From Escherichia phage T4_ev151: a stretch of 64,000 nucleotides of DNA. The position numbers and the translations under genes were made by a program. The notes beneath the pieces are model-generated. The model was not told where the DNA came from, made no database searches, and saw nothing but the letters and a program-made list of their open reading frames with translations. The stretch lies in sequence record LR597660. One strand, 5' to 3'. This document shows, one piece after another, positions 8,108-61,322 of this stretch; position 1 is the stretch's first letter; the number at the start of each line of letters is the position of its first letter.

Positions 8108-8122
8108 TCTTTGACGATTTAA

Positions 8123-8147
8123 GGGACCTTCGGGTCCCTTTAGTTGT
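8123..8147 (+). terminator. Rho-independent terminator after gene 23
   Basis: GGGACC-TTCG-GGTCCC hairpin (8123-8138) followed by a T-rich tract. Confidence 0.75.
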
Positions 8148-11054: not shown

Positions 11055-11081
11055 CAAAATGAAGAAAGGGGCCGAAGCCCC
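11055..11081 (-). terminator. Terminator after hoc on the minus strand
   Basis: GGGGC-TTCG-GCCCC hairpin (11068-11081) followed on the minus strand by a U-rich tract. Confidence 0.6.
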
Positions 11082-11087
11082 TTATGA

Positions 11088-13497: not shown

Positions 13498-13505
13498 TAT
13501 AAATA
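13498..13505 (+). promoter_or_regulatory. T4-type late promoter box TATAAATA upstream of the GIY-YIG endonuclease gene
   Basis: Exact TATAAATA 29 nt upstream of the ATG at 13534. Confidence 0.6.
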
Positions 13506-13533: not shown

Positions 13534-14151
13534 ATGTACCACTTTGTATATGAAACAACAAATCTAATAAACGGTAAAAAGTATATAGGAAAACACTCTA
13601 CTGATGACTTGAATGATGGTTACCTTGGTTCCGGTAAGGCAATTCAGCAGGCTATAAAGAAATATGGTGAAAACAATTTCTCTAGAACAATATTAAAAGA
13701 GTTTAAAACTTCTGAAGAAGCGTACATGTATGAAGAAGAAATTATAACTCCTGAAATAATAAAAAGCAAAAATTATTATAATATGAAACCTGGTGGAATT
13801 GGTGGAATTGTTATGACTACAGAGGTTATAGCAAAGATGAAAGAATCTTCCGCTAAGAGATTTGAAAACTCACCGGGCACGGTATTAGGTACAACTTGTT
13901 ACACCAATGGAACTAAAAATATTTTTATTAAACCTGGAGAACTTGTTCCAGAAGGATTTGTAAAAGGAATGGTTCATCCTAATAGAAAGTCCAGAAAAGG
14001 ATGTAAAGTCAAACCGACTACCACAGGAACTTTTTGGGTCAATAACGGTGCAATAAATAAATTAATACAACCAGACGGTATTATTCCCGACGGATTTATT
14101 AAAGGTCGTCTCATGAAAAGAGATTCTAAAGGCAAATTTAGTAAGGCATAA
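13534..14151 (+). CDS. Free-standing GIY-YIG homing endonuclease (Seg family-like)
   Basis: 205 aa; N-terminal GIY-YIG module (HFVYETTNLINGKKYIGKH ... Y..EEEI ... YYNMKPGG); sits in the inh-uvsW interval, where I recall T4 carrying a seg gene, but I cannot say which one. Confidence 0.8.
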   Translation: MYHFVYETTNLINGKKYIGKHSTDDLNDGYLGSGKAIQQAIKKYGENNFSRTILKEFKTSEEAYMYEEEIITPEIIKSKNYYNMKPGGIGGIVMTTEVIAKMKESSAKRFENSPGTVLGTTCYTNGTKNIFIKPGELVPEGFVKGMVHPNRKSRKGCKVKPTTTGTFWVNNGAINKLIQPDGIIPDGFIKGRLMKRDSKGKFSKA

Positions 14152-14153
14152 TT

Positions 14154-15662
14154 ATGGATATTAAAGTACATTTTCACGACTTCAGCCATGTACGCATCGA
14201 TTGTGAAGAGAGCACGTTCCACGAATTAAGAGATTTCTTTTCGTTTGAGGCCGATGGATATAGGTTTAATCCTCGCTTCAGATATGGCAACTGGGATGGA
14301 CGAATCCGTCTTTTAGATTATAATCGTCTTCTTCCATTTGGCTTGGTCGGGCAAATTAAAAAGTTCTGTGATAACTTTGGCTATAAAGCCTGGATTGACC
14401 CACAAATTAACGAAAAAGAAGAATTATCAAGAAAAGATTTTGATGAATGGCTTTCTAAATTAGAAATCTATTCAGGAAATAAAAGAATTGAACCACACTG
14501 GTATCAAAAAGATGCAGTGTTCGAAGGATTAGTTAATCGTCGTAGAATTCTTAATCTTCCAACATCTGCAGGTAAATCGTTAATTCAAGCTCTGCTTGCT
14601 CGGTATTATTTGGAAAATTATGAAGGTAAAATTCTTATCATTGTTCCAACAACTGCTCTAACAACTCAGATGGCTGATGACTTCGTTGACTATCGTTTAT
14701 TCAGTCATGCAATGATAAAGAAAATTGGTGGCGGAGCATCAAAAGATGATAAATATAAAAATGATGCACCAGTCGTTGTTGGTACATGGCAAACTGTAGT
14801 AAAACAACCGAAAGAATGGTTCTCACAGTTTGGAATGATGATGAATGATGAATGCCATCTTGCTACAGGAAAAAGTATTTCATCTATCATATCAGGTTTA
14901 AATAACTGCATGTTCAAATTTGGTCTATCTGGTTCATTACGTGATGGCAAAGCCAATATCATGCAGTATGTTGGAATGTTTGGTGAAATATTTAAGCCAG
15001 TAACGACTTCTAAGTTAATGGAAGATGGACAAGTAACTGAGCTAAAAATTAATAGTATTTTTCTTCGCTATCCCGATGAGTTCACTACTAAATTAAAGGG
15101 AAAAACTTATCAAGAAGAAATAAAAATTATTACTGGGCTCAGTAAAAGAAATAAATGGATCGCTAAATTAGCTATTAAGCTTGCGCAAAAAGATGAAAAC
15201 GCTTTTGTCATGTTTAAACATGTATCGCACGGTAAAGCTATTTTCGATTTAATTAAAAATGAATACGATAAAGTTTATTACGTATCAGGGGAAGTTGATA
15301 CCGAAACCCGCAATATAATGAAAACTTTAGCTGAAAATGGTAAAGGAATAATTATAGTAGCTAGTTATGGTGTATTTTCTACTGGTATTTCAGTTAAAAA
15401 TCTACATCACGTTGTTTTAGCGCACGGTGTTAAATCAAAAATCATTGTATTACAAACAATCGGTCGTGTATTACGTAAGCATGGTTCTAAGACAATAGCA
15501 ACAGTCTGGGACCTCATAGATGATTGTGGTGTTAAGCCAAAATCTGCTAATACGAAAAAGAAATATGTTCATTTGAACTATCTTTTAAAACACGGCATTG
15601 ATCGTATTCAGCGCTACGCAGATGAAAAATTTAATTACGTAATGAAAACAGTTAATTTATAA
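14154..15662 (+). CDS. uvsW: UvsW DNA helicase (SF2)
   Basis: 502 aa; MDIKVHFHDFSHVRIDCEESTFHELRDFF...; Walker A ...LPTSAGKSL... and DECH box (MMMNDECHLATG). Confidence 0.9.
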   Translation: MDIKVHFHDFSHVRIDCEESTFHELRDFFSFEADGYRFNPRFRYGNWDGRIRLLDYNRLLPFGLVGQIKKFCDNFGYKAWIDPQINEKEELSRKDFDEWLSKLEIYSGNKRIEPHWYQKDAVFEGLVNRRRILNLPTSAGKSLIQALLARYYLENYEGKILIIVPTTALTTQMADDFVDYRLFSHAMIKKIGGGASKDDKYKNDAPVVVGTWQTVVKQPKEWFSQFGMMMNDECHLATGKSISSIISGLNNCMFKFGLSGSLRDGKANIMQYVGMFGEIFKPVTTSKLMEDGQVTELKINSIFLRYPDEFTTKLKGKTYQEEIKIITGLSKRNKWIAKLAIKLAQKDENAFVMFKHVSHGKAIFDLIKNEYDKVYYVSGEVDTETRNIMKTLAENGKGIIIVASYGVFSTGISVKNLHHVVLAHGVKSKIIVLQTIGRVLRKHGSKTIATVWDLIDDCGVKPKSANTKKKYVHLNYLLKHGIDRIQRYADEKFNYVMKTVNL

Positions 15663-15675
15663 GGGCTTCGGCCCT
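15662..15675 (+). other. Hairpin AGGGC-TTCG-GCCCT between uvsW and uvsW.1
   Basis: Begins at the last base of the uvsW stop codon; GGAG RBS and ATG of uvsW.1 follow. Confidence 0.5.
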
Positions 15676-15687
15676 TTGGAGAAAAAG

Positions 15688-15921
15688 ATGTTACTAGAAT
15701 TTAAACAATTTCTTTATGAAGCTTCTATTGATGAATTTATGGGTAAAATTGCCTCTTGTCAAACATTAGAAGGTTTAGAAGAACTTGAAGCTTATTATAA
15801 GAAAAGAGTTAAAGAAACTGAATTAAAAGATACTGATGACATCTCTGTGAGAGATGCTTTGGCAGGAAAAAGAGCTGAATTAGAAGATTCAGACGATGAT
15901 GAAGTAGAAGAAAGTTTTTAA
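15688..15921 (+). CDS. uvsW.1: UvsW.1, small acidic protein (possibly the C-terminal domain of UvsW)
   Basis: 77 aa from ATG 15688 with GGAG RBS; track ORF starts at TTG 15676; lies in the +1 frame relative to uvsW. Confidence 0.7.
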   Translation: MLLEFKQFLYEASIDEFMGKIASCQTLEGLEELEAYYKKRVKETELKDTDDISVRDALAGKRAELEDSDDDEVEESF

Positions 15922-15975
15922 ATAAAAAAGGCCCAACCAAAAAGGAAGGGCCAAAACTATAGACTAAAGGTCACA

Positions 15976-16143
15976 CTATAGCAAAAGTTGTGTTTCATTT
16001 AATTGTTCTTCCGAACTTTCTGAAACTGGTAGTTCTTTAATGTAATTATAGCAAGGCCCAGGATGTACAGGACCTTTGTCTGTTTCAACAACCAATGCAG
16101 AATCGATTGGAGTTTTACAGACAACACAAATCTTATCTGACAT
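15976..16143 (-). CDS. Hypothetical small Cys-containing protein, 55 aa
   Basis: MSDKICVVCKTPIDSALVVETDKGPVHPGPCYNY...; strong RBS GAGGAG 5 nt upstream; late promoter box 26 nt upstream; below the 60-aa cutoff of the ORF track. Confidence 0.45.
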   Translation of the reverse strand: MSDKICVVCKTPIDSALVVETDKGPVHPGPCYNYIKELPVSESSEEQLNETQLLL

Positions 16144-16168
16144 GATTGTCTCCTCTGAATTATATATC

Positions 16169-16176
16169 TATTTATA
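16169..16176 (-). promoter_or_regulatory. T4-type late promoter box TATAAATA on the minus strand
   Basis: Plus-strand TATTTATA, i.e. TATAAATA on the minus strand, upstream of the 55-aa ORF. Confidence 0.55.
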
Positions 16177-16266
16177 ACCCCATCTTAAAACGCATTTCTT
16201 GTACACGCTTTAAACATGCTTCCATTTCTGCTAAAAGTCTAAATACTTCTTTATAATTTGTCATAT

Positions 16267-16494
16267 TTACCCCATATCTCTCATATGCATATCAATGCCC
16301 ATATCTTTAGAATAAAAATATTCATCAAGATATCCGGCAAATTTTCCTTTAATATAAAGGACATCTTCACCACACGGGTGGTCGGCCAGGATACGAATAT
16401 CCTGACGCTTAATATTATGCTTTTTCATTAAGAATTGAATTTCCGTTTCAAATTCTTCTTCATAATTAAAAGCATCATCAATGTTATATCTCAT
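16267..16494 (-). CDS. Hypothetical protein, 75 aa (uvsY.-1 position)
   Basis: ORF whose ATG overlaps the uvsY stop; translationally coupled. Confidence 0.65.
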   Translation of the reverse strand: MRYNIDDAFNYEEEFETEIQFLMKKHNIKRQDIRILADHPCGEDVLYIKGKFAGYLDEYFYSKDMGIDMHMRDMG

Positions 16495-16907
16495 TATTTT
16501 CCAGCCTCAAATGCTCGCATGTCTTGAATATGCTTAATAGCAAATCCACGTGATTTAATAGCATCAAGAGCTCCGCTACAGAAATCTAATAAAATCCCCC
16601 AATACTGTAACGAGGTATCAACCTTTAAAACATCCTTATCAGCTGATAGAACTGTCTTCATTTCTGATTTCTCGTAACGATCCATACTAAATTCATCACC
16701 ATCTCCTCGTCCCGAGTAGTAGTCTAATTTAGCTTTAAGAGCAACTTTTTTCTGTGCGTCAATTCTAAGCATTTCCTTTTTAATACTTGAATGCTTATTA
16801 AGCCATTTACTATATAACATCACATTATTAGCTGCTTCATACTGTAATTTAGTCGAATCTATAAACACATCTTTCTTCAATTCTTCTTGAAGATCTTCTA
16901 ATCTCAT
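16494..16907 (-). CDS. uvsY: Recombination mediator protein UvsY
   Basis: 137 aa, same length as T4 UvsY; MRLEDLQEELKKDVFIDSTKLQYEAANNVMLYSKWL... Confidence 0.92.
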   Translation of the reverse strand: MRLEDLQEELKKDVFIDSTKLQYEAANNVMLYSKWLNKHSSIKKEMLRIDAQKKVALKAKLDYYSGRGDGDEFSMDRYEKSEMKTVLSADKDVLKVDTSLQYWGILLDFCSGALDAIKSRGFAIKHIQDMRAFEAGK

Positions 16908-18019: not shown

Positions 18020-18027
18020 TATTTATA
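18020..18027 (-). promoter_or_regulatory. Late promoter box TATAAATA on the minus strand for genes 26-25
   Basis: Plus TATTTATA at 18020-18027, 22 nt upstream of the gene 26 ATG. Confidence 0.6.
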
Positions 18028-24843: not shown

Positions 24844-25025
24844 TTTGTCGCCTGGTTTAACGTTTTATCTGTATCACCGCCAGAGGTGTATGTACAAAAT
24901 CTAAATCCAGGAAGCACGCTTTCTTCGCCGGCTTGAATAGCAAAAATTTGTGGTATTTTATGCTTAGGATTTAAGTTAACAACCGGCGCCGAAGCGCCGT
25001 CAAATAATTCTGTAATAAGTTCCAT
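24840..25025 (-). CDS. Alt N-terminal domain paralogue, proximal fragment (alt.-1 position)
   Basis: 61 aa; MELITELFDGASAPVVNLNPKHKIPQIF...CTYTSGGDT aligns with Alt residues 1-55; RBS AAGGA; stop overlaps the next ATG (ATGA). Confidence 0.6.
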   Translation of the reverse strand: MELITELFDGASAPVVNLNPKHKIPQIFAIQAGEESVLPGFRFCTYTSGGDTDKTLNQATK

Positions 25026-27147: not shown

Positions 27148-27152
27148 AAATT

Positions 27153-27170
27153 AAAGGCCCGAAGGCCTTT
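27153..27170 (-). terminator. Hairpin terminator between gene 30 region and alt
   Basis: AAAGGCC-CGAA-GGCCTTT palindrome; on the minus strand it is followed by AAUUUUAU. Confidence 0.55.
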
Positions 27171-27357
27171 AATAATCTATTGGTAAGAGAGTACGATATA
27201 TTTCAAACTTTGGACCTTTTTCATAAGCATCAAAAGTTTCTGTGAATTTATTATAAGCATATGCATCTATAAATTCAATCATGATTTGTGATACAGAAGT
27301 AGAAACATCTCCACCTTCTTTTTGAGCCACGACAATTGTTTCTAAGTAAGCTTTCAT
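27169..27357 (-). CDS. Hypothetical protein, 62 aa
   Basis: ATG overlaps the DNA ligase stop (ATGA), suggesting translational coupling. Confidence 0.5.
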   Translation of the reverse strand: MKAYLETIVVAQKEGGDVSTSVSQIMIEFIDAYAYNKFTETFDAYEKGPKFEIYRTLLPIDY

Positions 27358-31054: not shown

Positions 31055-31094
31055 AATATTTTCCTCAGTAAGGGGCCGAAGCCCCTGTTTTATT

Positions 31095-31940: not shown

Positions 31941-31965
31941 TAAAAAAGGACTCCCGAAGGAGTCC
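31941..31965 (-). terminator. Strong rho-independent terminator on the minus strand
   Basis: GGACTCC-TTCG-GGAGTCC hairpin (31948-31965) followed on the minus strand by TTTTTTATTTTCC. Confidence 0.8.
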
Positions 31966-31970
31966 TCAAC

Positions 31971-61291: not shown

Positions 61292-61296
61292 TAAGA

Positions 61297-61310
61297 GGGG
61301 CTTCGGCCCC
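61297..61310 (+). other. Hairpin GGGGC-TTCG-GCCCC between genes 37 and 38
   Basis: Sits 5 nt after the gene 37 stop and 2 nt before the gene 38 RBS (GGAGG 61313-61317); no T-run. Confidence 0.5.
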
Positions 61311-61322
61311 TTGGAGGTTTAT

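Follow-up and report, generated by a model that had tools for sequence, protein, structure and literature searches.

The locus lies in a 64,000-nucleotide window and comprises two adjacent genes read from the plus strand. The first, uvsW (14154-15662), encodes an SF2 DNA helicase of 502 amino acids, as judged from its open reading frame and from the Pfam profiles UvsW_N (PF21241), ResIII/DEAD (PF04851/PF00270) and Helicase_C (PF00271). As in SF2 helicases of this kind, a UvsW_N domain accompanies two RecA-like domains and the protein ends at about residue 502; over residues 1-502 it matches the same stretch of PDB 2OCA, and both the window sequence and the ORF listing place its stop codon, TAA, at 15660-15662. 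The second gene, uvsW.1 (15688-15921), begins with an ATG at 15688 and encodes a helical protein of 77 amino acids with an acidic C-terminal tail whose last residue is Phe. It matches Pfam family PF11637 at 100.6 bits (cut-off 25, E=5e-29), PHROG 1143 (E=1e-39) and the NMR structure of T4 UvsW.1 (PDB 2JPN, E=1.5e-42), with which it agrees in sequence and in its helical-bundle fold. It also has the layout of the PF11637 family, namely a small stand-alone protein of ~75 amino acids, with its own start, encoded directly 3' of uvsW on the same strand. Immediately 5' of uvsW lies segE (13534-14151, plus strand), a GIY-YIG homing endonuclease gene recognized by the Pfam SegE_GIY-YIG profile and by its T4 position, and downstream there are three convergent ORFs that agree in position and length with uvsY.-2, uvsY.-1 and uvsY of T4. 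The best full-length matches to this 1.8-kb region are 98.7% identical, and the window belongs to a T4-type (Tequatrovirus) phage other than T4 itself.

Between the stop codon of uvsW and the ATG of uvsW.1 there is a spacer of 25 nt, which holds a GGAG Shine-Dalgarno motif (15678-15681, plus strand) 6 nt 5' of the ATG. An earlier note on this DNA had pointed out that the two genes are a single nucleotide away from forming one gene, and its coordinates (uvsW stop, A4 run, opening of the +1 frame at 15646, GGAG and ATG) agree exactly with the sequence and the ORF listing. The A4 run (15645-15648, plus strand), which it regarded as the site of a possible indel or slippage, spans the Lys-Thr codons AAA-ACA. 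A TGA at 15643-15645 is the final stop of the +1 frame, which is open from 15646 over the 14 codons that precede the uvsW.1 start (15646-15687). When one A is removed from the run in silico, a product of 588 amino acids results (...NYVMK-QLIYKGFGPLEKK-MLLEFKQ...), which reproduces the fusion of the earlier note together with its junction. A fused product would contain a junction-spanning peptide such as ...NYVMKQLIYKGFGPLEK, and a +1 shift on the same run would give ...FNYVMKQLIYKGFGPLEKKMLLEFK....

Such a near-fusion is no commoner than expected by chance. At the base composition of the window (36% G+C) ~6.8% of random codons should be stops, and the probability of finding none in the nine spacer codons is ~0.53. 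When adjacent same-strand ORFs separated by -10 to 60 nt were compared across the window with crude ORF calling, the downstream frame was open into the upstream gene in 38 of the 44 out-of-frame pairs, including, under the same crude calling, 5 of the 10 pairs with spacers of 10-60 nt. With 38 of 44 neighbouring pairs sharing it, the property is ordinary and is what adjacent genes of this compact genome normally show.

The sequence of the window could in principle be at fault, through a homopolymer or assembly error that conceals a single uvsW gene of ~588 amino acids, all the more as the RefSeq record of T4 does have a single uvsW of 587 amino acids and one changed base suffices to join the frames. 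We compared a 120-nt junction query (15611-15730) with phage sequence records, 498 of which matched. At least 99% identity was found in 470 of these 498, so that the Tequatrovirus junction is near-invariant, constraint and recent common ancestry being inseparable within the clade. Full-length identity of 100% was found in all of the best 60 of the 498 records and in 39 of 60 taken at evenly spaced ranks, which corresponds to ~320 records with the same junction. They include the T4 resequencings HM137666 (T4T), KJ477684-6 and OZ209023/57; HM137666 and OZ209023, which we inspected, each have two annotated CDSs. Within the genus the A4 run recurs unchanged in hundreds of relatives, and most other genera lack it. 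An exact scan of IMG/VR for A3, A4 and A5 versions of the junction returned two contigs only, both with A4, a number too small to bear on homopolymer variation. Since the 120-nt junction is identical in ~320 records obtained independently, by many laboratories and on many sequencing platforms, the homopolymer error that the earlier note had listed is very unlikely. Resequenced T4 sides with the window against its own legacy record, the discrepancy in that record lies in a hairpin stem and leaves the A-run unaffected, and distant relatives are all split, each by a junction of its own. An error in the window is not credible, and we give it a negligible probability.

The legacy T4 record deserves attention in itself. 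NC_000866.4 (= AF158101) contains a single uvsW of 1764 nt coding for 587 amino acids, a form restricted to NC_000866.4/AF158101 among 1339 phage records with UvsW.1, and a note in NC_000866.4 flags 'sequence discrepancies' in the uvsW section. In the alignment, resequenced T4 and the window read TTATAAGGGCTTCGGCCC where the legacy record has TTA-ATAAGCTTCGGCCC; over a shorter span, TTATAAGGGC elsewhere becomes TTA-ATAAGC there. The legacy record thus has two G's fewer and one A more in the 5' arm of the junction hairpin, its A-run being the same; the stretch that calls for correction is 114183-114190 of that record. As a result the stop codon and one half of the stem are missing and the frame is shifted, which generates the fused linker ...TVNL-ISFGPLEKK-MLLEF. 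The historical discrepancy sits in the G-run of the 5' arm and not in the A4 run. Its cause was likely band compression, a gel-reading error, at the stable GC/UUCG hairpin. The earlier note was correct in saying that doubts had been raised about the T4 annotation here, but it had the direction inverted: the fused 587-amino-acid form is the older one and was split later on the strength of comparative genomics, crystallography and resequencing (PMC1524935, PMC6486255). Nolan et al. 2006 (PMC1524935) found two ORFs in all five T4-like genomes that they analysed, confirmed them by resequencing and noted that the crystallised T4 UvsW is devoid of the UvsW.1 region; the Mineola genome note of 2019 (PMC6486255), citing Kerr et al. 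2007, holds that a sequencing error is the likely reason for the single gene in the T4 record. In the PDB, UvsW 1-502 (2OCA) and UvsW.1 (2JPN) are separate molecules. The two-gene arrangement was already known, publications of some twenty years ago having settled the matter.

The alignment of orthologous uvsW regions, proposed earlier as a check, gave the same answer well beyond the T4 group. We surveyed 41 uvsW/uvsW.1 junctions (that of the window and 40 IMG/VR loci, with UvsW identities of 53-99%), and the genes were split in all 41: the end of UvsW aligned to residue 502 and was followed by a stop codon in 41/41, uvsW.1 had its own ATG in 41/41, and an SD-like motif preceded it in 39/41. 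The way in which the two genes meet is variable, with 11 distinct layouts among the 41 junctions. The genes overlap by ATGA in ten and by TAATG in seven; seven others have an in-frame spacer of 6 or 9 nt in which the stop codon is kept, six a 7-nt spacer, four the T4-group spacer of 25 nt with its hairpin, four a spacer of 43-48 nt with unrelated hairpins, and three a whole gene inside the spacer. A 230-amino-acid HNH/NUMOD3 homing endonuclease separates uvsW from uvsW.1 in the loci L002 and L005 and in T6, and a 119-amino-acid DUF3307 membrane protein does so in L040. In addition, for ~49 of the 498 Tequatrovirus records the match is confined to the stretch of the junction 3' of the endonuclease insertion point; several of the partial-match records listed annotate a homing endonuclease there, which suggests that the ~49 may carry the same insertion. 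The two-protein arrangement, one of the alternatives that had been listed for this locus, is thus supported by the survey, by the sequence records and by the literature.

These junctions also bear on low-level +1 frameshifting on A-AAA-C (15645-15649), which would produce a minor isoform of 588 amino acids beside the two separate proteins. Some properties of the site would suit it: tRNA-Lys can pair again without mismatch once it has slipped by +1 on AAA-A, no stop interrupts the +1 frame between 15646 and the ATG of uvsW.1, and 13 nt 3' of the run there is a stable hairpin. However, the A site does not hold a slow or stop codon, the next codon being ACA, and an upstream SD-like stimulator is absent. 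Nor is the frame relation conserved, as it would be at a programmed +1 site, since the 41 junctions have offsets of 0 (n=10), +1 (n=13) and +2 (n=18). AAAA occurs in the terminal 18 nt of uvsW at just 17/41 junctions, the +1 frame of the spacer contains a TAG in L007, which is closely related and shares the hairpin, and ECP52 has one A more in the spacer and hence another frame offset. A whole gene parts the ORFs in L040 and probably in ~10% of the genus, and the T4 UvsW that was crystallised has 502 amino acids. Furthermore, the downstream ORF does not lack initiation signals of its own, as it has GGAG and ATG here, its own ATG in every surveyed junction and an SD-like motif in 39/41. Frame relation, A-run and spacer all vary among relatives while the uvsW.1 start is always present, and frameshifting, another of the listed alternatives, is left unsupported and highly improbable. 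One may speculate that, in Tequatrovirus only, the invariant A-AAA-C and the UUCG hairpin allow rare +1 slippage and a minor 588-amino-acid fusion isoform with a role of its own; if this were true, the isoform might, for example, be a tethered helicase-accessory module. We consider this extremely improbable.

The two separate proteins could instead derive from a recent gene fission, in which a frameshift split an ancestral helicase that ended in an accessory domain, as RecQ does in HRDC. The synteny of the two genes is tight and universal, and the overlaps that may couple their translation suggest a stoichiometric partnership. The fold of UvsW.1 was reportedly likened in 2007, by Kerr, to a RecQ accessory module. 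UvsW.1 has also been considered a potential DNA-binding partner (Iyer et al. 2021). We searched for natural fusions in two ways. Among word-indexed UvsW.1 homologues, 75/75 measure 52-96 amino acids. An exhaustive HMM profile search of 1.84 billion (1.84e9) representative proteins gave 36 hits, of which those with E<=1e-10 are all 48-145 amino acids long. A second class of hits consists of proteins of 260-301 amino acids with an N-terminal UvsW.1 domain, exemplified by a gene of Vibrio phage EniLVp02 located between genes for a DnaB-like helicase and a primase. A helicase of ~580 amino acids with a C-terminal UvsW.1 domain was found neither among the 36 hits in the 1.84e9 representatives nor among the 75 homologues, contrary to the suggestion in the earlier note that UvsW.1 may be a C-terminal domain of the helicase.

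These results speak against fission in several respects. No fused form was found in the 1.84e9 representatives or, the legacy T4 record apart, in the 1339 phage records with UvsW.1, and the sole 'fusion' is an erroneous record rather than a contiguous orthologue. The only natural fusion of the domain found is N-terminal and involves an unrelated protein of ~290 amino acids, and the fold search was non-specific. The split is common to phages of Escherichia, Klebsiella, Aeromonas, Serratia and Yersinia and to other phages, and any fission must therefore be ancient and not recent. Recent fission has, in our opinion, only a slim chance of being correct. The lack of any helicase-UvsW.1 fusion in the profile search argues that UvsW.1 is, on the sequence evidence, an ancient separate partner protein and not a C-terminal domain lately detached.

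The spacer of the window contains a C(UUCG)G tetraloop hairpin (15661-15676, plus strand; AAGGGC-UUCG-GCCCUU, 6 bp, -9.3 kcal/mol), which overlaps two bases of the uvsW stop codon. The presence of a hairpin at this junction, remarked on earlier, is thus borne out by folding. Its complementary arms and its sense-strand position, after the stop of uvsW and before the SD of uvsW.1, are traits of the CUUCGG class, and this class is over-represented in the window, where 13 C(UUCG)G hairpins with a stem of at least 4 bp occur versus 2.2 expected. Eight GC-rich ones, including that of the junction, lie on the sense strand 0-30 nt 3' of a stop codon, and at 61296-61311 the order hairpin-U-GGAG(G)-ATG is found again. 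CUUCGG hairpins are abundant in T4 intergenic regions, according to the account of Tuerk et al. 1988 given in PMC7165471 and PMC8948821. The junction hairpin supports a true gene boundary at 15662, and it may serve in mRNA punctuation or stabilisation. Since 30 of the 41 surveyed junctions have no hairpin, the two genes do not depend on one. Two other roles were considered and rejected. As an attenuating terminator it has no U-tract, its tail being UUUGGAGA with 3 U, fewer than the at least 5 U in 8 that accompany the GC stem of an intrinsic terminator, and the terminator scan was silent; as a translational block on uvsW.1 it leaves the SD outside the stem in the minimum-free-energy fold. An Rfam scan of 15000-16500 found no family at the junction; its sole match was sub-threshold, attributable to chance, and located at the downstream terminator.

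Regarding transcription, an exact copy of the T4 late-promoter consensus, TATAAATA, is found upstream of segE (13498-13505, plus strand). It is the only exact plus-strand copy upstream of uvsW.1 in this block, the next being at 18024, and sequences with one mismatch occur at chance level. Because no other exact late-promoter consensus lies upstream, segE, uvsW and uvsW.1 are probably co-transcribed as a late transcript from the 13498 promoter. Between the convergent uvsW.1 and uvsY.-2 there is a GC hairpin (15930-15952) with folding energies of -12.6 kcal/mol on the plus strand and -14.8 on the minus strand (z about -3), and with a U-tract on the minus-strand transcript only. Nolan et al. 2006 (PMC1524935) described a conserved 'bidirectional terminator' 3' of uvsW.1, to which this hairpin corresponds.

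All these observations lead us to regard uvsW (502 amino acids) and uvsW.1 (77 amino acids), with near certainty, as two distinct cistrons, probably of one late transcript, of a T4-type phage. Ribosomes translating uvsW would terminate at the UAA at 15660-62, and a C(UUCG)G hairpin, stable and of the kind that usually punctuates the space between cistrons in T4-type genomes, would fold just after this stop. Translation of uvsW.1 would start independently from its own GGAG SD and ATG, 25 nt downstream, yielding a separate small helical protein that would act as a partner of the helicase in trans; in other genera, its initiation would be coupled to uvsW via overlaps. Nelson and Benkovic reportedly found in 2007 that UvsW.1 binds UvsW and modulates the annealing activity of the helicase. 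The open +1 frame of 14 codons would be a functionless, chance outcome of a short AT-rich spacer. As for the idea of a single UvsW of ~587 amino acids, it would go back to a misread sequencing gel behind the legacy T4 record, an error since corrected by resequencing. The near-fusion itself adds nothing new on the biology of the locus, and its importance is mainly one of curation: the fused uvsW of NC_000866.4 propagates, so that UvsW.1 is labelled 'DNA helicase' across many annotations. What can now be stated is that the legacy discrepancy is placed in the G-run of the UUCG hairpin and that the two-gene layout is universal across T4-like phages.

Several known systems resemble this junction to different degrees. 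It shares with +1 sites of the prfB/RF2 type a downstream ORF in the +1 frame and a run that permits P-site tRNA re-pairing; it differs from them in having neither a rare codon nor an in-frame stop where the shift would occur, nor an upstream SD stimulator, in the lack of conservation of frame and site, and in the independent start of its downstream gene. The legacy T4 record NC_000866.4 represents the same locus, and its fused protein holds both the UvsW and the UvsW.1 sequences, but there the fusion arises through the change in the hairpin stem and not through the A-run, as the earlier note had imagined. With the CUUCGG hairpins of T4 the junction hairpin has in common the C(UUCG)G loop, the GC stem, the sense-strand orientation and the intergenic position directly after a stop codon. 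The closest system is the uvsW/uvsW.1 pair of T4 itself (HM137666). The window differs from it by one additional Asp in the UvsW.1 tail (DSDDDEVEESF versus DSDDEVEESF in T4) and has best matches of 98.7% identity over the 1.8 kb, whereas the 120-nt junction is identical, UvsW 1-502 matches 2OCA and the neighbouring genes are the same.

A homing endonuclease gene of the HNH/NUMOD3 type (230 aa) separates uvsW from uvsW.1 in the loci L002 (1783-2475) and L005 of other phages, as well as in phage T6 (L051:826-1518). At these loci, the original uvsW 3' end, with its final codons ...RKTVNL* and the hairpin, is now used by the endonuclease ORF, and uvsW has gained a recoded terminus, ...MKEVKL*, as expected for the disruption of a homing site. 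In about 49 of the 498 records matching the 120-nt uvsW/uvsW.1 junction, in Tequatrovirus, the only matched part is the downstream side of the insertion point, which suggests that they carry the same insertion. A Yersinia fHe-Yen9-01-like phage presents at the same place a gene for a DUF3307 membrane protein of 119 aa (L040:2145-2504; PHROG 2470, category 'moron'), sharing a 4-nt overlap with each of its two neighbours.

In phage ECP52 (L050:368-378), the spacer reads GGAGAAAAAAGATG, with six A, in place of GGAGAAAAAGATG, with five; it is therefore 26 nt long and places uvsW.1 at an offset of +2 instead of +1, both genes being intact. The T6 record MH550421 contains a split uvsW, annotated as 'uvsW' and 'uvsW-B' (L051:380-500), because an AAA run has lost one base where the codon aligns with K355 (TTTAACATG versus TTTAAACATG), either by sequencing error or in a genuine pseudogene. 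A second discrepancy between the legacy T4 record (NC_000866.4) and the resequenced T4T lies within uvsW, at nt 1369-1370 (L001:4046-4047), where the former has AG and the latter GA, changing LIDDAG to LIDSAG in legacy T4. In the record of phage BYEP02 (L045, OR757454), uvsW and uvsW.1 are both fragmented into short CDSs, several in number, in what looks like an error-rich assembly.

Hairpins with a TTCG loop and a stem of at least 4 bp occur 13 times in the window, against 2.2 expected. The GC-rich C(UUCG)G hairpins lie on the sense strand, 0-30 nt 3' of stop codons, at seven sites besides the uvsW junction: 8121-8140, 11066-11083(-), 24984-24999(-), 27150-27173(-), 31071-31086(-), 31947-31966(-) and 61296-61311, the last with the same hairpin-T-GGAGG-ATG layout as that junction.

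The UvsW.1 domain also exists in a second, fused architecture that has no relation to UvsW, namely proteins of 260-301 aa (P0094-P0109) with this domain at the N-terminus (PF11637, E=8e-19) and a C-terminal part matching PHROGs labelled 'cytidyltransferase'. In one of them, from Vibrio phage EniLVp02 (L043:2450-3337), the gene is flanked by those of a DnaB-like helicase and a primase. The UvsW.1 of phage vB_EcoM_IME339 (P0001, 96 aa) contains an internal tandem duplication of 20 aa (CQTLEGLEELEAYYKKRVK repeated). Every UvsW.1 homologue finishes with an acidic tail whose last residue is an invariant Phe (alignment A2); in the window, this tail reads ...DSDDDEVEESF (15883-15918). It is similar to the tails at the C-termini of SSB and gp32, and, speculatively, it might compete with that of gp32 for UvsW.
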